Both the position numbers and the translations under genes were made by a program. 64,000 nt of DNA from Camelus dromedarius (Eukaryota), in the NCBI RefSeq assembly GCF_036321535.1, contig NC_087436.1, forward strand, positions 45,200,001-45,264,000, written 5' to 3'. A model generated the notes under the pieces. The model was not told the origin of the DNA and ran no database searches. It worked only from the letters and a program-made list of their open reading frames with translations. The number at the start of each line of letters is the position of its first letter. Position 1 is the first letter of the stretch. Positions 25,014 to 61,619 of the stretch are shown piece after piece.

Positions 25014-25310
<297 letters not shown>

Positions 25311-25799
25311 TAGACCGAGATGGGGGTGAGGAGTGTGGAAGGCAGCGCCGCCCGGGAGGGTTGGAGGGGGGCTGCTTCTGCAAAGGCAGAAGGCCTCGCG
25401 GCGGCCCCAGTTGCGAGGTTACAGCTCCCCCTTCTGAGGCCAGCTGCAGGCCTGGCGCAAAAGCCCAGAGCCACACCGGCTCACAGGCCGCCACCCAGCG
25501 CCCTCCCAAACTGGGCCGCGTGCATTCCCCTGCACAGGGTATTGTGTTCCCGGCTTCACCAGACAAGAGCTAATAAAATCCCTCCCCGGCCAGGAACCTA
25601 GAACAGGCTCCAACCTGTGCCCTTTTAACAACGAAAACCCGCCTGAAACACTCAAGGGTTGGTTCTTCTTGGAAAACTTTCACTCCTGGCCTACCCCAGC
25701 CTTTTCTCTGCTCAGGTTGCCCTTTTATACGGTCTTTGCAGTTTTTCTGCCATTCAAATCTCTCCCACACCCTATTCCCTTGTTTTGTGATCTGCGGAA

Positions 25800-26900
25800 G
25801 CAGTTCTAATACACAACTCCTATTCTGCTAGTCCTCTTAGAAAAAAAGAGAAAAAAGAGGAAAGACTTTACGGTTTTGTTTATTTATCTTTTCTCAGGAG
25901 ATTGTTACTCACACCCTTCCTCCCAGTTATAATAGTTTTATTAAAGAAAGAGCTTACCTTTGTAGCAATTCTGTACTTTATGGATTGGTGAAAATTAACA
26001 GATAAATTACCCAGTAGCAATATCCTGGTTTATGCTGGTCGGTGGAAAACTCCAAGATTGTTAGGATTCTGGAAGTAGAAAAAAATACACAGCAGGGTCG
26101 AGAGACTTTGCTGTTTAAAAAAAAAAATGCTCTGGATAGAAAAATAGAGCCTCCAATTACAGCAGAGAAAACGGAAAGAAAACACTGTATAGCAATGATG
26201 AAATGAATAAAGACCAAAATGCATTCCCAAAACAGAGGCAACGAAGGCATTTTCTAGGTGGCATCTGTGTAGAGAATGAGGCTATGCTGGTGGATAAAAG
26301 AGCCGGGGTGAAATTGGAAATGGTTTTAGTTTAACTGCTCAGAGCTGCGCTCCAGCCTGGGCCGCGTGGTTTTTGCGCAAGGTCAGTCTTTCCTTAGCTA
26401 TCCTACGCGTCTGGGGAACAAGTCTCGCACGTACTCTTCTCGCCTGGGCAAAGTTTAGACCGCCCAGGGTAGAAATGGCAAGTAATTAAAATGAGAGCAC
26501 AATCTGTGGGTTCTCTGGAATCCTTCGGAAAAGCCCTCCCCCACCCCTCCGGCTTTTTTGCAGTCCCTCCCAAGTCTCCGCCGCCGCAGCGCTGGGCTCT
26601 CTCTCCCTCCGTCAGCCTCTTTCCAGACCCGCGGCTTGTCCAGCCAAGTGGGGAGTGAGGCGTGCTTTTTATAGCAGTCGGGTGCAAAGAGGAAGGGGGA
26701 TAAGAAGGAAATCGAGAATGAAAGGGAAAAGGGGGGAAAAAAGCGGATTAGGCAGCTGGTCCTGGCTGAGATGTGTAATGTGAAACATCACTGGTGTCAA
26801 CTCGGAAATCTCGGGCCAGGCCTCGCTCCAATACACAAAAGACGCCGTCTGGGGCGGCGGCGGGCCCGATGTGGATTGAGAGTGGGGTTGTGTCGGGGAC
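25800..26900. promoter_or_regulatory. Probable ASE (Nodal/FoxH1-responsive left-side enhancer) in the last intron
   Basis: FoxH1 motifs AATACACA at 25808-25815, 26084-26091 and 26830-26837, and TGTGGATT at 26870-26877; Nkx2-like CAAGTG at 26645-26650. Location matches the known Pitx2 ASE. Confidence 0.75.
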
Positions 26901-27504
26901 ACCGGACGTGGGTGGGGGCTGGCCAGCCGACTGCAAAGCCCAGCACCCGGGCTGGGTGGGCCCAGCCAGTCGGAGCGGCACCCAGCGCGCGGGCCTGGCC
27001 TGGGATGGGTGGAGGGTGTGAAGGAGCGGAGCGAAGTAAGGGGAAGGCTGCAGAGAGACTAGTTCTGGGGTCTCGGAGATTTACACGCCTAGCTCGAGGA
27101 GTTTAATGAGCTGTTGGAGAGGTGATCTTTTGCTTCTTATTTGGTTGTTTTGATAGGCGAGGAAGGGGGTCGCGGCCTGGCGCCTGTTGAGAGCGCACTT
27201 TCCGTGGAGTAGTGGGCGGCAGTGGAGATACGAGAAGGGAGGGAGTTGTATGGAGAGAGCGTGGGCTGCTGGTGCCCTCCCAGCCCCTTGTCCACACCAC
27301 TGAGTCTGTGGCTCTGGAATGCAAGCAAGTTTGCAAGGTGAACGGGGAAGGGTTGGGCCGAGAGCCCACAGCTCCGCGTTTATTTTTCAGTAAGTGTTTT
27401 TGGACCCTGAGGAGGGCCTGGGTTAGTGTACAAGCCACCCGCAGGCCGCCAGGCGTTGGGCTGGGGTTTGTGGCACAACTCAGAGCCCGGAGTCGAAGGC
27501 CTGA

Positions 27505-28242
<738 letters not shown>

Positions 28243-28930: not shown

Positions 28931-30739
28931 ATTGGTCTGGATTCTTTCTGCCCTCCTTTGTCACCTGTCCAGGGTTTCTTAGTCACTGCTTCCTAAACAA
29001 ACCAGTTCCCTCTGCCTGCCTAGTTAAATACACAAGGCAGCAGTACTTATTTAATTTTGGTAAAAATAAATTATAGTCATTCATCAGAAACTAAAAAGAA
29101 AAAAAAAAGACACTCTCAGGGGAAAAAAAAAAAACTTGCAAAGTCTGGACTTGTCTCCCAGATTTTTGTTTGGCTTAAACCCAGAGGATTCCATTATTGC
29201 TAGCAAATAATATAAGAGGGAAAGAAGAAAGGAGAAAGAAATTTAGAAAGTACATTAGCTTGGAATGAGTCTCAAGTTTACTCTTTTGGGGGAGGGGAGA
29301 GCTGCACATCCAGTAAATCGTTCTGGAGAAGTATGAGTGTATGTATACATGTACAGTATATATACATTCCCCTCAAGAGGAATACATCAATAATAAGTTT
29401 ACAAGGAAACACCTCCAGTTCAAAATATTTAGGCCTCCACGTTTATCTTCCAGGCTTAAGTAGAGAGATTCTTCATGTTATATTACATTACTATTTCCAA
29501 ATCCTTTCAAGACATTAAAAGAAACAAAGACCATTTCTAATAACCATAGCCCTTTAGTTTCTCAAAGAGCCCAGGGGTTGAGAGGTTAGAGTGGAGTTTC
29601 CTGAGTCTTGTCGACCAATATGTAGTTGAGGCAAAGGTCATGCTCCCTGTGTTTTGTTTTAAATAATATTGACCCATTAATTCTAAACCTGCTTGTTCCT
29701 GAAATTATACAGGATTATAGTTTGCAAACTGTGGGACAATGAAGCAAATCAAGATGAATTACAGCCCTGGTCCTCCCTCCCATCCTCTGACATCTAAAAG
29801 GGGAATAAAGTCGGTGTGAGTGTTTAAAAGAACTTTAAGCACCCACTCTCCCTTTGTTGGTGGTTTTCAGCTTTTTTTTTTTTTTTTAATGTGAAATCTG
29901 ATTTTGTAACTAAGAGTAGCAAATACAACTTAGTCCCAAAGAATTCACCATGGCGCAAGGGGAGGTCGGCGTGTGTGTTGGGGGGGGGGAGCTCTGAAGT
30001 CTTTTGCCATTCGGGTCACCACCACCCATCCCCCCGCGATGGGCGAGGACAAACACCATCCAGGGGAATCGGGAACGAAAAGTAGCCGCTGGTTTTTCTG
30101 GGGCGAGAAAACCTGTGTTTTTGCGCTCAGGTTGCTTTTATCTGACTGAAACTTTACCTATAGCTTCTGGAGCTCAGACACTGAGTCTTTGTTCTGCATG
30201 AAACTGCTGCTGCCACTTAAAGAGATCACAGATAATGTCCCCGATTTAAGACCAGTGCTTAATGTACATTAACTGTCTTTCTTTTTTAAACTCTGCCTCA
30301 GACCTGCGGAGGGATCACGCGGCAGTGGAGGGCAGATAAAAGCCCTTTGGACGAGGGTCACCTCGGTCCTTGTTGTTCACTTGAGAGCAGTGGAGAGGAA
30401 AATGGTCCCCACGGGCGGACTTTGGCTTCTGGAGCCGCGGGGCTCGTCCGTCCGTGCCGCCCAGAGCCTCCGTCTGGTATGGGGGAGGGGCGGCGGGAGA
30501 AGGGACTGGGAGAGGGGATTTGGGGATGGGGAGCTGGAAGCGTTAAGGAGACCTGCTGGGAGGATTTGCGTCTGCGGGTCTAAGAGTGACCTGGGAGCGC
30601 TGGGTGCAGGAGGTGAATCTCGGCCTAGTTCGCTTGCTGAAATAGAACTCTATTTCGAAGAAATCAATCAATCTGCAGGAAACAAAAATGGAAGTCGAGG
30701 TTTGGGAAGGGTTGTCACTTCCCTGACTTGAGTGGTGCG

Positions 30740-31049
30740 GGCTGGGGGCGGAGACTCGGGACTGATGAGAGGCCCTTTCTCCCACCTCAGCTCCTTTCCC
30801 CGGACTTCCAGAAGGAAGAATTACCCTCCTCACCCTTCCCCCGCCTCCCCACACCCATCCTCCCTCGCCCGCCGGCCCCTTTCCGCACCTCCTTTTCCCT
30901 TTAAGTGAGAAAAGCCTAGTTCCCGAGCCAGCGGAGTCGGTCCCCTCGCCCCTCCCGCTCCCATGCCGGTCCCCCCCTCCAGCCATCGCTACTGCCACCA
31001 CCTCGGTTCCACTCAATCGATTTTTGCTGCATGTCAACATTTATTACCG
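30740..31049 (+). ncRNA. Candidate first exon of a PANCR-like downstream lncRNA (start uncertain)
   Basis: GC-rich promoter-like region ~2 kb past the PITX2 poly(A) site, GC box GGGGCGG near 30745, perfect donor CCG|GTGAGT at 31049/31050. Confidence 0.4.
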
Positions 31050-33849
31050 GTGAGTGTGAGGGTATTTCTTCCTCTTCTCTAGGTCTCTTAATGATTTCTG
31101 AGCTAGTTGTGTATTAAAGTGCTTAAAGGAAACTTTAAGGTAATCTATAGCATGAACACCAACCTCCTCCGCTTAGGATCAAAGATGGCGAGCGGGAGGT
31201 CGGGCCCCCAGGAGCCCGGGCCTCCCAGGCCTTCAGTCCCCCGCCGCCCACCTCTGAGCGCCCTGAGGCAGGGGGTCTGGGACAGCAACAAGCAGACAGT
31301 TCGCGGTCTAGGGGCTTTTCCTCCCTGCCCTCCTCACCTGTTACTCCAATCCTCTCTCCCGCAGGTCCTTGGTTTTTAAACTTAAAAAATTCAAGGCCCC
31401 AAACTCTTCCTTACTCTGATCCTGAATTCAAATTAATGGAGACCTGGGGAAAGGTGGATGTAGCTCACGTTTGTCTCAATTTCCTCCCAGTTCTTAAACC
31501 TGAGTTTTACAGCCCACAGCATGATTAGAAACTTAATTCTTAAAAATATCTTGGGCAGCCTGGGCCCTGTAGGCGGTTTGATTAGGAGGCAAACCCTCCC
31601 CTTCTCCTCTAGGCCCTGTTCTTTCTCCCACTCCCACCCTCTTCCTGCGAGGTGCTGAAATCCAGGAGTCCTTTCAGGAGTGTAACAAAAAAAAAGGGGG
31701 GGAGGAATAAAGAACGTCTTAAAAGTCCCAATATTCCTCGAAAGCCCCATAAATTAACCCTATGAAGAGCGGCGAGTTCTTTTAAGGAGAGTCTATAAAA
31801 ACTTGTCGCGATCTCCCAGGAGGACAACTCCCTCCCTCCCCAAACCCGGTCGAGAATGTGACCAAACAAAGGTCTGCCCTGCAATCCACAACCTAATCCA
31901 CGAGCGCCCTCGCCGCCGTCGCCAGGGCTCCCCAGCCTCCGGCGCTCACAGACGCAGCAACGCTGGGAGTCCCCGGCTCGCCGACTGAAGTTCTTGAAAG
32001 GAAAAGGGAAAACAACAATGTAATCAGATCAGAGGCCTTTATGAATATATTGATTATCCTATAGAACCCCCCTACAAGCTGCAGTTAATCTAAGCACACG
32101 GGGAAGCCAGAAACGTGGTTGACTGAGGGAAGAGAGGTCTCGGAGTAAACGGGAGAAATTTCTTATAGCAGATTTTCAGAAGGAAATTTTTTAAACTATC
32201 TATACACATTACTAATTTACTTTTTCAGGTCTTTAATCTCAAAAGTTTATTTATGACCCACCCTACTCCACCCCACCACCAAAGGAGGCCTTCTCATTGT
32301 TGCCATTCTATCTGAAAAGACAGAAACCAGAATTTATTGTGTGGAGGATACTTAACTTCATTCACTTCTGTGCCGAGTATTTTACGCATTTTATGGAAAT
32401 ATGGATTTTAGATTTTGTTTGAAGCTTAGAGAAGGCCTGCAAGAAACACAATGTCCCACTCAAGATGTATTTAATTCTACTTCATTACCTTTAAAAAAAA
32501 ATCATTTCCACTCCTGTTATAACATGCCTTGTTAGTAGTTCAGTGGCAGTTGTGGAAAGCAGAAGATACTGGAAGTTAAAGTTACTCAGCCAAAGAATGA
32601 CTAAAAGAACCATCTAAATTCCCTTTTTAAATATTTAAAAAATATTTAATAATTATATGGTAAAGGTGTTCACTTTTAGGGGATTGTGTCGGGGACTGTA
32701 TTTTTTTTTTCTTCTTCTTCTTCTTCTTCTTCTCTCAGAAGAGCTAAGAGAAGTTCAGACTCATTGGACCCTCCCTGATCAGGCTATGTGTCTGCATCCC
32801 CTGACTTTGATGGATCCTTCTAGAGCCAGTTCTCCTATTCTTCCTGCAAAAATGTTTAAGGTATTTGCCCCACCCTCGTGCTTTCTGTCTTTTTCTTTTC
32901 CTATCTTTTCCCTCTTCTGTTTTTTTCTTTTTATCCACTCCAAAGTGGGGTTTTTTGTTTGTTTGTTTGCTTGCTTGTTTTTCCTGTTCTATCAACTTAG
33001 AAAACGGACCAATGATGCTGCAACCAAATGTACCTTAGAGCGTCCTTAGAGCTTCGAGACTCCCTCTACCAATGCTTTCTCTGTCCAGAAGCAGTAGTCT
33101 TTCTGCCTCCGCCAACAGTTTGCAGCAGCGGGGGACCCGCCCCCACCCCAAACCCCCCACCCCGGCCTCCCTCAGCCGGCAGTCCTGGACAAGAACATTT
33201 ACCCTCGTCCCTCTAGGGAGATGAGACCTTGAGGCGTTTCTGCTGTCCCTAAGAAGACAGTGGAGCAGCATATGGAATGTGACTTGGAACCCAGATTAGC
33301 GGCTACCCAGTTCTTGGGTGCTTTCCCCCGTTCTGCTTGTCTCAACAGCCCCCTCATGTCTGCTTCTCTGGGTGGGTATCTGGGTGGGGTTGCTGTACCC
33401 ACATGAAGCTTGATGGCATCGTTCTCTGTCCTCCCAGATGAACTGGCAGGGCCTTCTGTAGTGTCACTGTACAGGGCCGTTTGCGTTGTGCTGACCACGG
33501 GTCTCTGTAATTCACCCCGCTGTGTGGGGGCACAGGGGGCAGGGAACGCTGTTGTGGACTGAGGTGGACACCTTGCAGGCCATCCCCAGCGCCACAAAAG
33601 GGGCTTTGCCTGCCAGAGCCCAAAGCGACAGACGACGGGTCACTTTGTCAGAAAATAAGATAATATCAAACAAAAGAAAGTAAAATAAAACCCTTCTTAT
33701 GCGGGCGCTGGGCCTCGGGGGATGTTCATTCACAGGGCTCTACTAACATCAACGCCTCCACCCTCTCCTAAAATCCATGAAATCGTAGGAGCCACTCTTA
33801 TCTGATGAGGCAGGGTCTTGTTTGTCAGTTTCTCTGACAGGGGGGAAAA

Positions 33850-35450
33850 AATCCCGCCTGCGAATACTGGGCTGCAGCTCCCGGAACGAAACTTCCCTCA
33901 TCAGCTCGGAGCCTCCTCCCCCCCTGCAGCACTGCCGGCCTGTCAACCGCCCAGCGCCAGGGGATGGCAGCCTGGACAGCTGACCGGGACCTTCTGGACC
34001 TCTGGATTCCGTGGGGACCAAGCGGCCCAGCCCTTAGAAAGACCCGCGGTGACCTCGCTCCAGCTGAACATGCCCCCAAGGGCGGCTTCGCCGTGGGCCT
34101 CACTGGCTGCCCGCACTGTGGCTCGGGCACGACCCAATCCTCCCCTTTTCTATTGACCACAACAGCTGCTTTATCTTAATGTTCATTTTTTTTGGCCGGC
34201 GACGCGGGAGAAGGGAGGTGGCAAGACTTGCCGCCTCTCATTACCCTGATGGTATTTTCAGAGGGACCCAGAGAAGTGGTGGCCCAGAGGGCAACCTACG
34301 CACCCCGCTGTGCTCCTCTCGGGTCTCCGCTATGGTGTTTGCGCGTCCCTCCGGACAACAAAACCGGAATCTGATCCGCAGCTGCCGCCGTGCGCCCACT
34401 TCCCCCCTCCTCAGCCCGCAGCCCCAGGCGAGCATCGGAGCCGGGTGCTGGAGCGGCACAGCCTGCCTCCGAGTCCCGCTGGGCCGAAGCGCCCGCCCGC
34501 GCGCCCGCCGCCCCTGCACGCGCCGCTCCCGGCCTGGGCCGCGGCGTCGTGGGCGGTCTGGACTCAGCCCGGGCACAGCCTCCCGGCTGCGCCTCCGGGG
34601 ACAAGAACTGGGCCCGGGCTTCCGACCCCCAACCCCCGCCCCCGCTCCTCTACCCTCTCAGAGTCGGCCCAGGGAGGCCCAGGCCGGAGGAGCCCCCGTC
34701 ACATCCTCCTCACCCTCTCTCGGGCTTCTGAGCCTTCACTCCCGAGCAGCCATATACCTTGAATGGGTCGTCCCCGCCTGCCTCCCTCGACCTGCCTCTC
34801 GAAGCCCTGAGGTTGAACATTAACCAGCCGGAGCTATAGAGTGGGGTAAAACGTTACATATAAAAATGAATCATCTATCCGATCCTGGGAGTGAGGACCT
34901 ATAGAGAGTTCTGCGCCGAGAGCTGCCCCGGCCAAGTCCCTGGCCCGATGCACCGACCCTTCCGGCGGCCACTTCCCCAGCGGCTGGGATTGTGTTGGGG
35001 CGGGAGGGTTAGAGGTTAACGGACCAGCATTTCTCCTTGAGTAGCTTGATACTTAGGCCTTCTAACGCAAGTGAATGTTCTTTCCTCTCACACTTGAGAT
35101 ACACAGAAAGATCTGAGACAGATTTCCTCTTTTCCAAAGGTTAGTAGGAGCAGCTGCAGTTCCAGAAGGAGTCGCTGCCCACAGGGTCCGGAACATAGTT
35201 TGGGCGGACATCTCCGGGAATCCGCCGCCAGCCCTGACGCTCTGGGTGGACCCTGGGAGGCAAGGCTGTGTGGGTAAAGAATGGAGCACCCCAGGCCGCC
35301 AGGAGCCAGAGGCGAGCCGCGAGGAGGGTGACACAGGGGATGCGGGTCCTGATCCCGAGACAGACTCTGAGCAAAGCCCCGGCCAGCGATCTGGCTGAAA
35401 TCCCAGGCTCAGGTGCCAGCCTAGCCCCCACTCCCCCGGACCCTGTCACT
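33850..35450. promoter_or_regulatory. Downstream CpG island
   Basis: High CpG density with no recognisable coding exon. Confidence 0.7.
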
Positions 35451-40170: not shown

Positions 40171-40699
40171 AGAAAATACCATTTATAAAAGGCATACGTA
40201 TTAAGGAAATATATGAAAATAATATTACCTCATTAGTTTATGAGATGAATAGTGTAGTGACTTAGCCAATCAAAAGTAAATTTGTTCTACTCTTTTCGCA
40301 TGTGTTTCAAGGAATATTTCTTAGACTAAAGCAATAGGTATGACCTCCTAAGATATTTTGAAATGTGACATTTTGGATATGTTAGGAAAAGGAGAAAACT
40401 CTTGCTAATATTAAAGAAAGGATACACAAACACACACACAGACATCAGCTGGCATATGAGCAAGTGCATTTTCCTTGGTCTTGTACACTACAACCTGCTT
40501 CATTCTTCATTCTTCTTGCCTCTCTTCACCCCTGTTGTCCACTTTTGAGGCTGACTTGCGATCTCAGCTTAGACATTCCTACTCTGCAAAAGGCCTCCCT
40601 GATATTTTGGCCTTGGCTTAGGTCAAGGTTTCCCTCCTGTGTGCTCCCATAGCCATAGCAAAGCACATAATGCACTTCCCCGTGAATTTAACACTCTTG

Positions 40700-40950
40700 A
40701 AGCGTATAGGCCAGCTATTTTGAAGAATGTCTCCATTTGCTTTGCATGTGTGTGATATTTTCACGTTATTAGACTCAGATTACATTTATCTTCTATGATA
40801 TTCAGGAATATTACAGAAGTGATGCTGTGTTCTTAGGCACATAGTGCCCGTTTAGACGATGTTTGGTGGTGTTACATTGATCACCTGATTAAGGTGGTAT
40901 CTGTTAGCTTCTCTATCATATTGTTACATTTTTCCCCACTGTAGTTAGTA
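40700..40950 (-). mobile_element. Old L1 (L1MC/ME-like) 3' fragment
   Basis: ggccagctattttgaagaatgtc...attagactcagattac...gatcacctgattaaggtgg motifs. Confidence 0.55.
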
Positions 40951-43449: not shown

Positions 43450-43670
43450 AGCTAATATTTATTAAGATAAGTGTTCTATTCTCAACACCTCAGTTAATTA
43501 TGAAAACAAATCTATGAAATAGGTACTGCTATTCCCATTTTACAGATGAGGAAACTGCGTTGCTAAGAGATTAATTAATTTGCCTAAGATCACCTAACTA
43601 GGAACCAGTAAAACTGAATTTAAATCTGGGATTGTTTGCCCTCCAAAGATTTTTCTCTTAACCACAATAT
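43450..43670 (-). mobile_element. MIR SINE
   Basis: cccattttacagatgaggaaactg...ttgcctaagatcac MIR core. Confidence 0.8.
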
Positions 43671-44500: not shown

Positions 44501-45779
44501 ATGCTATTCATTTTGAAGAGTAATTTCTTAAATTGGGTGAACAAGAAAAGGAATCACGGCAAGAAAGACAGTGAGAAATACAGTTTTGGAATTGCAACAT
44601 CGGCAAGGCCAGATTTTCCAGATACAAAATTCCCCCATTGATGCGTTCAACCAAGACTGATTTTACTGAGAGGGCAAGTTGATGGCAACCTGTTATGATT
44701 TGTAAGGCAGCCCAAAGTTTGTCAAAACTTTTATTTGTTAGCTGTATCAGAAAATCCGCACCATAAGATGTCTTAAGATGGATTCAGGCATCAACAACAA
44801 AAGGTTCCTAAGTATTATTAGATTGCCCAACTTCTTTAAGAAAAAAAAAGTCAAACTTTCATAGAGATTGAAAAAGATTCCCGTCTTGGAATGCTGGGGG
44901 CAGGCTTTGGTGGGGTATTGGTACAGGCAAGAGGAGCTGGGTACCAAGAAACTTGGGGGGGGGGGAATTCATGATCTCTCAATAATTTAGTAAACAATTC
45001 ACCCATTAAAAATATTTTTGAAGGATCAACCAGGCATAGGGCATCTTGCTAAGTCCAATGGGAGAAAACAACAGCAATGACAAAAAAAAAAAAAAAAACA
45101 GAAACAAAAACAAAAAACCTGTTTCTATTCTTATGTGGTTCGGTGAGCAAAGATAATGAATTTATCTTATCTCATAATTTGGTTACTGGCTGATATTTTG
45201 TGTACAGCCCTAGCAAATAAGTTACATGTTTCCAGATTAGAAAATTCAAAGCATTATAACCTTTTGTACTCATTTGTGAGGGTTTTGTCTGTCTAATTCA
45301 TCCGTCTTTCAAAATGCACTGGAGTTCCTGGTAAAGTTGGAGCTGCCCATTGTTCAGTGCACTATATCATCATGGTGCGTGGGAGAACTGGACTCTTATT
45401 TATGTTGGACAGAAAATTAACTTAATGTATGTGCTATTTCTGTAATGGTGCAGGTGAGGATATATGTACTTACTTTATCAACTTTAAATGTATAAATAGA
45501 CCTAGAGACACAAGTGTATAGCAAGATTTTTATCAACACATTGCATTTTTAAAATTCCATAGCATAGCATACTTATCAACAATTCAAAGCTGGGGAGTAT
45601 TGTTGATATGAGAGTTAAAATTCAAAAACATCTGAATAGGTTGAAATAAAGAATTGAAACTACAATTGGAATTTAATGTTCAATATGGGTAATTTTTATG
45701 TTTAAAAAAATCAGTAAATACCAAAAGTGATGAAGTTGGCTTAATAGATTAAAATTAAATTATCAGGGATTTTAGTGGA

Positions 45780-48285
45780 TGTAGTAGCCAGCCTTCACGA
45801 TTTATTCCAGGTTCCTATAATTCACATCTTGTAGCCCCCTTTCACGATGAATAAGTTTGATCTATGTCACTAATAGGCTTTGTGGAAATAATGATGTGTG
45901 CTTCCAAGGCTGGGGCATAAAAGATATGGCAGCTTCTGCTGTACTTCTTTTGGATCACTTTCTCTGGGGAAGAAGTAGCTGCCATGAGGACACTCAGGCT
46001 GCCCTATGAAGAAATCCATGTGGTAAGGAACTGAGGCTGCCTGCCAACAGCCAGTAGGAACTTTCCAGCCATGTGAAAGAACATCTCTGAAGCAGAACCT
46101 ACAGCTTCAGTTAAACTTTCAGATGGCTACAACCTCAGCCACTCTCCTGAATCCAACCTCATGAAAGACCTTGAACTAGGACCACTCAGTTAAGCTGCCC
46201 CCAAATTCCTGACTCTGAGAAACTGAGATACTAAATGTTTATTGATGTTTTGAGGCACTAAATTTTGCAGTAATTTTATTGACACATTAGTAGATAATAT
46301 ATTTGGAAGTGGGCTGCTGCCATAACAAATCCTAAAAATGTGGGTAAGGCATTGGAATTAGGCAGTGGCAGAAACTAAAAGAATGTTGAAGACAGTATTA
46401 GTGGAAGTTGAAAATGTCTTGAACAGACTGTAATTATAAGCCTCATAGTCTCTGAAGAGGCTGCTGGTGAGGAAAACGTTACTGGAAACCGAGAAAAGGA
46501 GAACAGTTTTATGATGTTGGCAGAAGGTTGAGCAACACTGTCACCTGCAGTGATGTGGGACCTGAAAAATGTATCTAATAACATGAATGATCTAGTTAAG
46601 AGATTTTCAGTTAGAGTGTTAACGTTGCTGCTTGCTTTCTTCTTTCTGCTTATGGTCAAATGAGAAAGAGGTAAGATAAGCTAAAGGAAGGATTGTTAAA
46701 CCAAAAAAAGCCAAGACTTGTTAGTCTTGAAAACTGCCAGCCTCTCGAGATGGGATACAATGCAAAAACAAAGAAATGGCTTCTGAGCAAAGATTAAATC
46801 CAGGTACTGTGAGACAAACATAGTATAAAAATGAAGCTGACACTATGACTGTACAGTCCTTTGTTAAGATTTGCTAAGGTTACAACTCAAGAGAGCTATT
46901 CAGTCGACATTAGGGCTTCTAGGAAGCTTAAGTGTACTGTCCTTCAGTCATCTTAGCAGAAATCCTACATAAATAAGGAATTATCTCAAACAGATTTGTA
47001 GGTGTGGCTTTTGTATAATGGAGTAAACCTTAGTAAGATTCACAGGAGACCCACAAAATTTTAAAGATTATTTAATTGTTAGAAACATCAGCAGCTTGGA
47101 CTGAAAGGAACAGATATAGAACAAAAGGAAAAGAGGCCTTTGGACCTAAAGACTTCTATAAACAGGAACCAGACTGAGAAAACTACACAGCTTTAAACCT
47201 AGACTACCTTCATGGAAAAATAAATTGACTCACAATGCAGACCAGGAGCTTAGAGGTCACAGTGAAGAGTCATGGAAAGCCATCCCCAAGAAGCAGCAGG
47301 AATAAATTCCAGTGAAAGAACTTCCAGTATGTGCCTACCTGGACTACAGAATTACTATGGACCAGTGATTCCAGTATTCCTCTTGTTTTCTGCCCTTTGA
47401 AGAGGAACATCCATAGTGGTCATCCAATTCCTGCTCCACCATTGTCTGTTGAGTGTGTGTGGGGGTGGGGGGTGGGGGGTAGGCTGGGTTGGCAGTGAAC
47501 AGATATCTTATCTCTAAAGAGATAAGGTCTTCACAGGTCTTCAGATTAAAGAACTATTCTCAAGGAGCTGTGCTCAAGGAACCACTCCCAGAAAGCTTCA
47601 TCCACATCTAGGTCTGGTTGAGATGACAAGATTCTAGACTTTGAGATGGTGCTGTAATGGGATAAGATTTTTGGTGGCCTTGAGGCGGTATTAGTATAAT
47701 TTACCTGTGGGAGGGAGACTAGTCAATGGTGGGGGTGGGTAGAGGATGGACTCCAGGGCCAACCTCCAACATGCCCCCAAATTATTCTTGCTTCCTGGGA
47801 CTTATGCCCCTGTGTGGACCCTTCCCTCCCACACTGGATAGGGCTGACTAGTGCAGCCAACAGTATATTATGGAAATGACAATATATGGATTCCAAAACT
47901 AGGACGTAAAAGATTGTGGCTTCTGCCTTGCTCTCTCTTGGATCACTCACTCTGGGGGAAGTGAAGTATCATGTCATTTCATGAGGACACTCCAGCAGCC
48001 CTAAGGACAGGTCCATATGGTAAGGAACTGAGCCAGCATGAACTTGACTGCCATAAAAATGGACCAAAGTAGAAGCAGATCCTCCAGCCCCAGTCAAGCT
48101 TTCAGAGGACTGTAGATCTAGCTGAGATTTTAACTGTAACCTCCTGAGAGACACTAAACCGGGACTACCCAGCTAGGCTGCTCTCAAATTCCCAAGCCAC
48201 AGAAATTTTGAAAAATAATAAATATTGTTGTTTTCAGCCACTAAATTTTGGGGTAATTTTTATGCAGCAACAGATAACTAAAACA
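45780..48285 (+). mobile_element. MaLR provirus (MLT1F/G-like): LTR ~45780-46301, internal region ~46302-47750, LTR ~47752-48285
   Basis: Two similar LTRs (both contain ggatcact..ctctggggga, atgaggacactc, ggtaaggaactgag, cactaaattttg, agataa). TG...CA termini and a 5-bp TSD gtgga/atgga. Confidence 0.85.
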
Positions 48286-53369: not shown

Positions 53370-54120
53370 GCAGCCTTGCCAGGGAGATGTGACTGAGTCC
53401 AGGCAAGGTGAGCCCAGGTCTCGCGAACCCGCGCGTCCAGCCCTTCCCCACTTCACGGGACCCCAACGAACAGAAGCCCCGCCCCCAACGCCGGGAGGCG
53501 CCCGCGGCCCCCTTGGTCGCTCACCTGCCAGGCGAGGCGGGGATCCCGGTCCGGCGAGCCCAGTTAGGTAGGTCCTGCCCAGGGTATCAGTCACCTCTGC
53601 CTTTTCCAGCGGCTTCCTTCGTTCCCTCCATGACCAAGCGCGCCACGTACTTGAGAAGCCCGGAGCTTCGTCCTGGACCTGCCGGCCTCTCTGCGCGCGC
53701 CTCTTGCTCCTTGCTTGGAGGTGGAGCGGGGCTCTGGCCTGGAGGAGGCCTGGGCCGGAGCCCGAGGCCCGCAGTCCTGCGGCGCGGGCTGGTGGACGGC
53801 GGACGGTGGGCAATGGAGGGGGTCCCGGCGGGCCGAGGTGCGGGGTCCGGGCCGGGTGTGCAGGCGCCGTGCGCGGGTCCGGCCTCACCTGCCTGCGCTC
53901 CTTGCGCGTCGCGACCCCCGCGCGGCCCGGCCGAGGAAGGAGCGGAGAAGGCGGGCGGCTGGGCCCCTGAGAGCAAGGAGGGTGTTCACACACCGGGAAG
54001 GCGCGCGAGGTTTGCGGCCTTCGCCATCCCACGCGCTCCCTCACGGTGGGGCCTGATTACAGGTCGAGGGAGGCGACGGTGTGTCAAAGGGCGCTTGGCC
54101 TCTCTCACAGAGTGACTTAG
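53370..54120. promoter_or_regulatory. Orphan CpG island in AT-rich intergenic DNA
   Basis: Abrupt ~750 bp GC/CpG-rich block with a GC box (CCCCGCCCC ~53477) and minus-strand splice donors. Confidence 0.8.
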
Positions 54121-55829
54121 GTCTTACCCAGAGTCCGCACTTTGTGTCACAGCTCTCAGCGACTTTCCCAGTTCCCTGGCTCTGTCCTTTGTGGAAACTT
54201 TAAAACTGTCTGTTCCTGGACGTTGGTAAAGCTTTCTGGTTGTCTCTGCTGAGCGTTCTTTGCACCAGAGCAGCAGAGCTATCATTATAGGCAAACCTCA
54301 CATCCCAGCACCACTCGATGAGTTTTATCCAAAGGTAACATCAGTGTTTTTGTGGCAATAATTGATGAAGAACATTTTACTTACTTACTTACTCACTCAC
54401 TCATTTAATTAATTTTCATAAGTAGTGAAAAATCAAGATTTTGGATGAATGTATTAGAATTTAGAGGAAGGAGAAAGACAGTGGTATAAAATCAGGATAT
54501 GTTTATTCGGTATATTCCCAGCCTTTTTCTTGCACTGTCCATGAAAAGGGCCCCCTTTGAAAAGATGAAATGAGATTCAGGAAAGTTCACTGTTCCTTAG
54601 ATGGAGAAGATATTTCGACTTTTCCTCAGAGTATTTCTGCTTTTCGTCACCCTTGATTTAGGGAGATAGAAAGGCTAAGTAAGAGTTGGACTTCATTTCA
54701 TCAAACCTATCTGTCTTCATTTAGGTTTTGTCAGTCCTTTTATGACTTGCAATTAAACACTGCACCCCCATCTCTGGCCATGGTTCAGATAATAGCCCAT
54801 TCAGCTATTAGCCTATCTCTGTCAACAAAGAATTTGAGATGGTTTTAAAAACTACGCATATAGAAAAGAATACAAATAAAATATAACTATTAAGAACCCT
54901 CAAGGTGGGGTGAAATTGTGCACAATTGCTAAAATTGATTAGCCAATTTGGCTCTAAGCTTCCCCAGGTTCCTTGAATGAAATGTACTTTCTGCTCAGAG
55001 CAAATAGTAAAAGAGCTAGAAGGCATTTTGGTTTCTACAAGGCCACTCTGTAAAATCCTTAACCTGCCACTAGAGGCTGCTCTTAATTCTCGATATGTGA
55101 GGTCTAATCTAGTGAAAAGAGCTCTTTTTCCAAACCAGTAAGGAACAGGAAATTACTTTGGAAATTGCATTGCTTTGCTATTCACATATTGATGTCTTTT
55201 TCCCACTAATAGTTCTTTCTTTTTTTAAAAAAATTATCATTATATATTTTTGGGTTCATATCAATTCTGTTTGATGTTTGGTTATTGGTATCCAAATAGA
55301 AGATAAAGGCACTCTTACCTTTGGCTTAAACGTTTGTATTTCAGCATGGTATGTAGGCCTGGGATGCTTTTGGTTGCTGTTACTGAATTTCTTTTTTTGC
55401 AGTTAGAAAGAAGACTCACTTTTTATTAAGACACAATTCATGACCAAAAATGCATTGTGTCTATCACTTGTCTTATTAACTGTTACAATGAATTAAATAG
55501 TTGTTCTCTTTTACCTGCTCTCTTTTTTAATAAAATAAGGAATATTCAGAAAGGGCTTTTCAGATAACCGAGATATAATTAAACTTCAAATAAGCAAAGG
55601 CTGAATGAGTACAAGGTGAAGATTTATGAAAAGTTCTAACAGCTGAGAGAGGCTTTATCCCTCATCAAAGGCATACTGTATTCAAAATATTTTAATTTCT
55701 GACAAGTGATATCTACCTCTTAAGTGTTGGATGGCAAAGTATTAATCTGCAACATGAGACTTAAAGTAAACATTCAGCTTTCTGCATAATGTGCAAGACC
55801 TGCCCTCTTTGACTTCCAGGTCTCATTGC

Positions 55830-56297
55830 AACTTGTAGAGGGTACAAATTTTAGCATCTGTTGAGCTCCTGCTATGTACCAATTACTGTGCGAGGTGTTT
55901 TATGTACAATTATCTCATTTTGTCCTAACAACAGTCTTATGAAGCAGGTATTAACACCTTTTAAAATGAGGAAATAGGCTTAGTGAGGTTAAAAGTAACT
56001 TGTTCAGGATCCAACAGCTATTAGGGGGTGAAGCTGAGATCAGATCTGGTCTGGCTGATGGCAAAGCCCATCCGCTTTCTAATTTATGAAACACTAAGTT
56101 TAGCGAAACAAGGGTACTATTAAGGAATAATTCATACATTTGATAAATAGTTCTTGAATGTTACTTTCATCAGCTAAATTCCATACTTGTTCAGATTTCC
56201 TTAGTTTTTATCTATTGCCTTTTTTTATTAGTTTCAGGATCCCAACCAGAATACCATATTGCATTTAATCATTATATGTCCTTGAGGCTCCTCTTGG
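55830..56297 (-). repeat. Inverted repeat, left arm (MIR + unique + L1MC-like 3' piece)
   Basis: Reverse complement of 57367-57840; gives the twin 62-aa ORFs 55951..56139(-) and 57531..57719(+). Confidence 0.97.
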
Positions 56298-56660
56298 TTG
56301 TAATAAACTTCTCAGACTTCTGTTGTATTTGATGACTTTGACAGTTTTGAGTACTGGTCAGCTATTTTGTAGAATGTCCCTCAGTTTCAGTTTGCCTGAT
56401 GTTTTTCTCATGATTAGACTGGGGTTATGGATTTAAGGGAGAGTGACCACAGAGGTGAAGTGCCATCTCATCACATCATACCACCATTATGATTTATCAC
56501 TGATGTTGACGTGGAACACCTAGCTGAGGTAGTGTTTGTCAGGTTCTCTGCTTTAAAGTTGCTTTTTTTTTTTTTTTTTTCCTCTCTTTCCATGCTGTAC
56601 TCTTTGGAAGGAAGTCATTGTGCATAGCCCACACTTACGAAGGGGGAAGCTATGCTCCAT
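56298..56660 (-). mobile_element. L1MC-like 3'UTR fragment continuing from the left arm
   Basis: tctcagactt...gatgactttgacagttttgagtactggtcagctattttgtagaatgtccctc. Confidence 0.7.
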
Positions 56661-56975
56661 GGCAAACAAGGTGGCTTAAACAACAGAAATTTGTTGTCTT
56701 GCAGTTTTGAAGGCTAAAGTCTGAAATCAAGGTGTCTGCAGGTTTGTCTGCTTCTGAGGGCTGTGGAGGGAAGATCTGTTCCAAGGCTCTCTCAGTGGCT
56801 TAGGTGGCTATCTTCACTTGACACTGTCCCTGGATTTGGGCCCACCCTGAAGATCTCACTTTAACTTGATTACCTCTCTAAAGACCCTGTCTCCAAAGAA
56901 AGTCACATCCTGAGAAGTGAGGGGCTAGGATTTCAATATATGAATTTTCCGGCGGACACAGTTCAACCCTCAGCA
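56660..56975 (-). mobile_element. MLT1-type LTR
   Basis: gtggcttaaacaacagaaatttg...tctgaaatcaaggtgtc...acttgattacctctctaaagaccctgtctccaaa. Confidence 0.75.
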
Positions 56976-57366
56976 CCCTCCTTCTTGGCATTCTCCTTCC
57001 CTGGCTTCCTTAGAGCTCTTTCTCTCATACATCTCTGACCACTCTTTCTCATCCTCTTTTTCTGGTTTCTCTTCCTTCATCTGTCCCTTCAGCGTTGCTG
57101 TTTCCCAGTATTCTGTGCTCCTTATTCCTGTTTTTCATTCCACATGCTACCCTTGGGGCTCCATGCTTGCACAAGTTTAACTGTCATAGATAGAGAGATG
57201 CCTCCAAAATCTATAGCTGAAAAACCTGTATCTCTTACATTTGTCAAAACTCATAGAATGTTATAGCACAAAAAATAAACATAACATGTGCAAATTAGAA
57301 AGAAAATTATTTAGGATTTAGGATTTGTAATAAATTATATTTTGGGGATCACATTCTGTATTCGAT

Positions 57367-57840
57367 CCAAGAGGAGCCTCAAGGACATCAAATGATTAAA
57401 TGCAATATGGTATCCTAGAGGGGATCCTGAAACAAATTAAAAAAAAAAAAGTCAATAGGCAAAAACTAAGGAAATCTGAATAAGCATGGAATTTAGCTGA
57501 TGAAAGTAACATTCAAGAACTGTTTATCAAATGTATGAATTATTCCTTAATAGTACCCTTGTTTCGCTAAACTTAGTGTTTCATAAATTAGAAAGCGGAT
57601 GGGCTTTGCCATCAGCCAGACCAGAAATGATCTCAGCTTCACCCCCTAATAGCTGTTGGATCCTGAACAAGTTACTTTTAACCTCACTAAGCCTATTTCC
57701 TCATTTTAAAAGGTGTTAATACCTGCTTCATAAGACTGTTGTTAGGACAAAATGAGATAATTGTACATAAAACACCTCGCACAGTAATTGGCACATAGCA
57801 GGAGCTCAACAGATGCTAAAATTCATAACCTCTGCAAGTT
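57367..57840 (+). repeat. Inverted repeat, right arm
   Basis: Reverse complement of 55830-56297. Confidence 0.97.
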
Positions 57841-61458: not shown

Positions 61459-61598
61459 GGAGGGAGGATATAGCTCAAGTGGTAGAGCACATGCTTAGCA
61501 TTCACAATGTCCTGGGTTCAATCCCCAGTACCCTCTCTAAAAATAAATAAATAAACCTAATTACTTCCCCCTGGCAAAAAAAAAAAAAAAAAAAAAAA
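61459..61598 (+). mobile_element. tRNA-derived SINE (camelid vic-1-like) with poly(A) tail
   Basis: A box tagctcaagtggtagagc, B box ggttcaatccc, (AAAT)n linker, A-tail at 61576-61598, degenerate TSD aaaaaaa...attga. Confidence 0.85.
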
Positions 61599-61619
61599 GT
61601 AAACCAATTTAAAAAAAAT

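Follow-up and report, generated by a model that had tools for sequence, protein, structure and literature searches.

The inverted repeats at FLNA and EMD on the eutherian X chromosome are an old pair that has been kept alike and that flips the segment between its arms; they are large, lie around genes and occur in many species. The palindromes of the primate X and Y chromosomes have arms of 8-140 kb, which are mostly gene-bearing, up to 99.99% identical and conserved across species, and flipping of the spacer by crossover is known in the X palindromes (PMC8327919). The conversion rate in X palindromes has been put at 4.5e-5 (PMC8981503) and the human paralogue average at 2.5e-7 (bioRxiv 10.1101/135152). 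Conversion between human paralogues has a mean tract of 250 bp (CI 63-1000) and slows as the copies diverge (bioRxiv 10.1101/135152); between copies more than 10% apart it is rare, with 325 events in 66.1 Mb (PMC10172114). Short inverted duplications are a common class in human long-read call sets, with 277 events and a median length of 284 bp (PMC12350158).

Here, we describe an inverted repeat within a 64-kb stretch of the dromedary genome, which was analysed as a whole and is referred to as the window. Unlike the X and Y palindromes, it has gene-free arms of 0.48 kb that are 95% alike, is apparently autosomal and is known from one genome. Judged from the sequence, its arms appear to be an old inverted duplication whose core was re-homogenised later, most likely by non-allelic gene conversion.

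Results

A self-BLAST of the whole window, which contains no N, returned one strong inverted match, 55830-56305 against 57840-57359 (482 columns, 23 mismatches, one gap), and in a global alignment 453 of the 476 aligned columns were identical, or ~95% overall. The locus has the anatomy of a palindrome, in that two inverted arms of common origin flank a unique spacer of 1,053 bp; with more than 90% identity, the arms also reach the level of the flanking inverted repeats that mediate recurrent inversions, although they are shorter than the 654-bp minimum of the human set. Inverted arms of ~470 bp around a spacer had been proposed in the initial annotation of this DNA, and both alignments confirmed them. 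The outer ends of the arms were placed correctly, and the inner ends had to be revised: the arms reach 8 bp further inward, and the spacer measures 1,053 bp rather than 1.07 kb. In the following list and throughout, MIR, L1MC, MLT1 and L2 are the names that we presume for the repeat-like parts of the arms and spacer.

55830..56305, forward strand: left arm, 476 bp
55830..55846, forward strand: outer diverged edge, left copy; 4/17 sites differ; partner 57824-57840
55847..56184, forward strand: core, left copy; 4/338 sites differ, probably through 3 events
55850..56085, no strand assigned: MIR-like SINE relic in the left core; limits approximate; partner ~57585-57820
56185..56305, forward strand: inner diverged edge, left copy, L1MC-like; 15/121 sites differ, plus one 6-bp indel; partner 57359-57485
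56306..56660, no strand assigned: spacer part 1, L1MC-like; continues the left inner arm and is without counterpart beside the right arm
56660..56970, no strand assigned: spacer part 2, MLT1-like LTR relic; weak match to an LTR-like copy at 46199-45933
56970..57358, forward strand: spacer parts 3-4, L2-like to ~57215 and then an L1-like piece (by eye)
57359..57840, reverse strand: right arm, 482 bp; reverse complement of the left arm
57438..57443, no strand assigned: 6-bp indel, extra in the right arm; in a T-run near 56226, 42 bp inward of the core boundary
57486..57823, reverse strand: core, right copy; partner of the left core in the global alignment

The estimate of about four mismatches in a core of ~340 bp held exactly, with 4 differences in the 338 sites of 55847-56184. 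In the global alignment, these fall at 55878, 56043, 56044 and 56148, and the longest perfect runs in the core are 164 and 103 bp. The adjacent differences at 56043-44 may represent one event. At this site, the left version completes a perfect 8-base palindrome (56041-56048) that is found in the left arm only and is possibly the product of a short template-switch event. The inner part of the arms had been described as more diverged, with indels; the divergence is real (15/121), and there is a single indel of 6 bp rather than several. This divergence is even along the inner edge (5/42, then 10/79), and the boundary with the core is sharp. The outer 17 bp were likewise correctly described as more diverged than the core (4/17, p 2e-4). 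At least 13 matches in 17 would occur by chance with a probability of 3e-5, a value not corrected for the choice of end point. Divergence did not differ between the outer and inner edges (p 0.25), and the fact that both edges are diverged to a similar level fits the view that they date the duplication.

The best two-changepoint model recovered the same core with a log-likelihood ratio of 15.1. None of 1,000 permutations reached this value (maximum 9.96), and the contrast between core and edges therefore survives the post-hoc choice of boundaries. Uniform identity along the arms, which, together with absence of the second arm from close relatives, had been set beforehand as a sign of a simple recent duplication, is thus absent. 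By Fisher's exact test, the core differs from both edges taken together (4/338 vs 19/138) with p 7e-8, which means that the arms are more alike in the core than the age of the duplication allows. The Jukes-Cantor distance is 0.136-0.152 for the edges and 0.012 for the core, corresponding to ~14-63 Myr and ~1-5 Myr, respectively, at 1.2-5e-9 substitutions per site per year; of the three rates used, 5e-9 comes from a rate quoted in PMC8605555 and the slower ones are assumed. As a control, we used a nearby direct pair of LTR-like sequences (45773-46297 and 47740-48277), which has arms of similar size 1.4 kb apart and is ~70% alike; 153 of its 505 columns differ, evenly along the pair, and its longest perfect run is 13 bp. 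The even decay of this pair indicates that closeness alone does not keep repeats alike, with the reservation that the control is older than the inverted repeat and in direct orientation. The two LTR-like repeats enclose an internal part of 1.4 kb, and we take the whole element (45773-48277) to be an old MaLR.

Several parts of the arms are repeat-derived. The SINE-like part has independent copies in the window at 43459-43629 (102/164, 62%; score 395) and 1946-2121 (111/171, 65%; score 342), both scoring above the shuffled maximum of 233, and the L1MC-like stretch that extends the left arm is matched by an independent copy at 40683-40933 (162/227, 71%). The presence of other copies at 62-65% and 71% identity identifies these arm parts as interspersed repeats. 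The claim that the core includes a MIR is thereby upheld as regards an interspersed repeat; the family name is our presumption. MIRs have been described as relics of the Mesozoic and as the chief SINE annotated in camelids (PMC8605555). In the SINE part, the arms are 99% alike, much closer to each other than independent copies are (p 2e-24). The inner edge, at 88%, is also closer than the independent L1-like copy (15/121 vs 65/227 differing sites, p 5e-4), in a comparison of neighbouring rather than identical stretches of the repeat. The earlier view that the arms are not independent insertions thus gains from both parts, and the sequence supports a single old duplication.

The L1-like 355 bp beyond the left arm had no match right of 56700 with E < 1.6. 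Because this segment is without a right partner, either the duplication was once longer and was then trimmed, or it arose in one complex event. The second part of the spacer matched the LTR-like copy at 46199-45933 in 152 of 237 columns, with a score of 300 against a maximum of 266 in eight shuffles. The third and fourth parts we presume to be L2 and L1. For the L2 label, no relevant Pfam match was found in six frames (a single Dynactin match, E 0.32, is attributable to chance), the best Atlas score (0.79) was uninformative, the one match returned by phmmer was an unrelated tandem-repeat protein, and none of 50 targeted alignments gave p < 0.02. By eye, the right flank and spacer region 56970-57215 resemble consecutive parts of a single L2 in the same orientation. 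If so, the right arm would be the original, the left arm an inserted inverted copy of ~830 bp and the present orientation of the spacer ancestral; as all five attempts at confirmation were negative, we offer this as a lead. Also by eye, the start that the spacer's LTR lacks may be present in the left flank, and similar short words are present at 55825-55832 and 56659-56667, the ends of the presumed inserted segment; these words could be decayed junction microhomology. An origin by L1 3′ transduction was rejected since the outer end is without poly-A, and twin priming was rejected since the two L1-like pieces are separated by what we take to be older repeats.

The surroundings of the inverted repeat include one recognisable gene and an isolated CpG island.

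25086..28242, forward strand: PITX2, homeobox exon at ~25086-25253 and last exon with OAR motif at 27679-28242 (protein matches)
53400..54100, no strand assigned: CpG island, GC 72%, CpG observed/expected 0.84; 1.7 kb left of the left arm

The best PDB match of the homeobox exon is 'Pituitary homeobox 2 / 3' (E 1.7e-26), and the last exon contains an OAR motif (E 3e-9); from the protein encoded by the last exon, we take the gene to be PITX2 rather than a paralogue. The inverted repeat starts ~27.6 kb 3′ of its stop codon, which ends at 28242. The CpG island stands alone in AT-rich surroundings, 25 kb past that stop codon, and carries splice-donor-like motifs on both strands (by eye). None of its five ORFs had a Pfam match. 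From its sequence, the island is possibly a promoter or enhancer, and no other candidate promoter was noticed in the vicinity of the repeat. Several GC-rich islands are also present at 30000-35400, within 7 kb downstream of PITX2; in human, this is the region in which the lncRNA PANCR has its start, a few kb past PITX2 (PMC7553719). At 61461-61600, there is a tRNA-derived SINE with an A-tail, which matched the Rfam tRNA model with 42.7 bits and was not called by ARAGORN; it resembles the camelid SINE.

No gene was found in the arms. A 62-aa ORF in the core had neither a homologue nor a Pfam match, exact look-up of six ORF sequences returned none (the PITX2 frame, which is not a valid positive control, was one of these), and a 20-base motif of the core had no match in a metagenome scan. 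Neither a GC nor a CpG excess over the background was seen in the core, at low power for GC. Among the papers listed by literature searches, including PITX2-directed ones, none dealt with this locus. At what we take to be the approximate orthologous position in human, there was no inversion among the matches listed from PMC6467913 (2 of 5, both on chr2) or among those listed from PMC12350158, where the only chr4 row listed was a 190-bp insertion. No function is evident, and no effect on PITX2 is indicated.

Discussion

How might a core that is ~99% alike have come to lie between diverged edges? We propose that an inverted duplication of at least 476 bp was formed locally long ago and that the edges keep its age. 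The arms, which lie 1 kb apart on one chromatid, would since have passed sequence to each other through non-allelic gene conversion or template switching, probably on many occasions, and such exchange would hold the central 338 bp ~99% alike. The ends would escape, because the outer 17 bp border on flank without homology and the inner 121 bp are situated at or beyond the 6-bp indel, a candidate barrier to conversion. Where an exchange in the core ended in a crossover rather than in conversion, the spacer would be inverted. The initial annotation, which is supported in part, had proposed an old duplication with a repeatedly homogenised centre. Its old age is borne out by the edges, and the pattern is most simply read as a later homogenisation of the core. 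We put the probability that the core was homogenised repeatedly by non-allelic gene conversion at roughly 0.6.

The core, at 338 bp, is within the reported range of conversion tracts (mean 250 bp, CI 63-1000). If the locus is at steady state, the formula 2u/d (PMC8981503) implies a conversion rate of 1.8-5.6e-6 per base per generation, which is ~7-22 times the human paralogue average and below the rate of the X palindromes. The rarity of conversion above 10% divergence favours a core that never drifted far. The GC content of the core (36% vs 35% background, with 24 of 70 tiles as high) speaks against conversion, but at low power: from GC-biased conversion we would expect, roughly, a shift of ~2 points, and a shift of that size is invisible in 338 bp.

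The behaviour of such a pair of arms was explored in toy simulations in which the indel barrier and the protection of the edges were built in. When conversion was left out, the core/edge pattern arose in 1 of 2,000 simulations; when it was included, in a set of 80 settings of 300 runs each, tens to hundreds of events produced the pattern in as many as 50% of runs. If a perfect seed of 50 bp was required, the runs showing the pattern had medians of 8-244 events, and the pattern was frequent (>10% of runs) only with at least 34 events. In a separate set of 18 settings of 400 runs each, with seeds of 134 or 200 bp, no run showed the pattern; at rates close to the human average, it arose only with no seed or a 20-bp seed. 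Persistence of the pattern thus seems to need an unusually high local rate. The one-in-2,000 result, together with the non-uniform identity, led us to reject a simple recent duplication.

The literature and the toy model alone favour repeated conversion over one late event, which has a real but lesser chance of being correct. Under a single late event, the arms would have been free to diverge by ~13% until ~1-5 Myr ago, when one conversion tract or a double template switch replaced 338 bp in one arm by the sequence of the other, the diverged edges acting as landing pads. One tract explains the sharp core boundary and the flat inner divergence equally well, and its size would be within the reported range (bioRxiv 10.1101/135152). 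Moreover, in simulations with no seed requirement, 2-3 events gave the pattern in 3-7% of runs, one of the events erasing 27-46 differences, and template switching is known to turn imperfect inverted repeats into perfect ones (PMC8755829). Against this stand the rarity of exchange between copies more than 10% apart (bioRxiv 10.1101/135152, PMC10172114) and the near failure of the simulations with a 20-bp seed at the lowest rate, in which 0-1 of 300 runs showed the pattern. This counter-argument is weakened by the fact that a genome scan selects striking cases. A core duplicated recently by itself and set by chance between two independent L1-like copies would account for diverged edges in another way, given that the inner edge is an interspersed repeat. 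We consider this extremely unlikely: the inner edge continues the core without any shift in register, its two copies are more alike than the independent copy is to them (p 5e-4), and the outer 17 bp match as well (13/17).

An error of assembly or polishing, in which one core was filled or corrected with reads of the other arm or one arm is a fold-back chimera, is improbable. The window is free of N, the arms keep 23 distinct letters (four of them in the core) and an indel, and a fold-back chimera would be expected to be uniformly identical and not to return to unique flank. By the same reasoning, collapse during assembly would need a core that was near-identical at the outset. We regard it as less probable still that selection keeps the arms alike, whether through dsRNA transcribed from the nearby CpG island or through twin regulatory elements of PITX2. 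The island and the gene are 1.7 kb and 27.6 kb away, respectively, and an arm-to-arm fold of ~460 pairs is predicted, with -1,046 and -1,051 kcal/mol on the two strands, but any inverted repeat folds in this manner. Changes tolerated by G-U pairing are without strand bias (4 vs 7, p 0.55), no Rfam family reached its gathering score in the element, and the ORF in the core is without homologue or domain. Repeat-derived DNA would not be held at 99% by selection acting alone, which could do no more than protect a pair that was already converting.

If repeated conversion is taken one step further, the locus may be a minimal, gene-free, autosomal palindrome in which a 340-bp core has been in concerted evolution for tens of Myr at about ten times the average paralogue rate and in which the spacer may flip in camelids. 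We advance this fuller picture tentatively, and it is more doubtful than repeated conversion as such. Should it be true, it would hold for arms below the size of every inversion-mediating repeat in the human set of 45 inversions (PMC6748972), the spacer would be flipping beside a CpG island in the PITX2 regulatory region, and the locus would provide a small neutral test of how short and close inverted arms escape divergence. Concerted evolution would also turn it into a compact and probably neutral gauge of conversion between arms lying close together and of the points, flank or indel, at which it ends. Arm identity misdates such duplications ~13-fold (0.012 vs 0.152). The locus changes no general principle.

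Among known systems, the human repeats that mediate inversions resemble this locus in having a high-identity core in diverged copies, as in HsInv0209, where 782 bp at 99.9% lie inside copies at 94%, and in being a substrate for recurrent flipping (PMC6748972, PMC3961182). In contrast, they are longer than the arms described here (654 bp to 24.2 kb), and here one orientation is known. The human short inverted duplications share the class of origin and the size, but they are young polymorphisms, whereas here the edges are ~13-15% apart and the core appears to be re-homogenised (PMC12350158). The patchy identity and the tract of a few hundred bases are also those of non-allelic (interlocus) gene conversion between duplicates (bioRxiv 10.1101/135152, PMC10172114). 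With the primate X and Y palindromes, the locus shares inverted arms, a unique spacer, ~99% identity (here in the core), conversion as the likely cause and a spacer open to inversion (PMC8981503, PMC8327919). With arms of 476 and 482 bp in which no gene was found, it falls outside the class of large sex-chromosome palindromes. The FLNA-EMD inverted repeats are old and kept alike like the arms described here, but they are much larger and, unlike these, flank genes. By analogy with these systems, the locus would work like a miniature conversion-maintained palindrome, and the mechanism itself is already well described.
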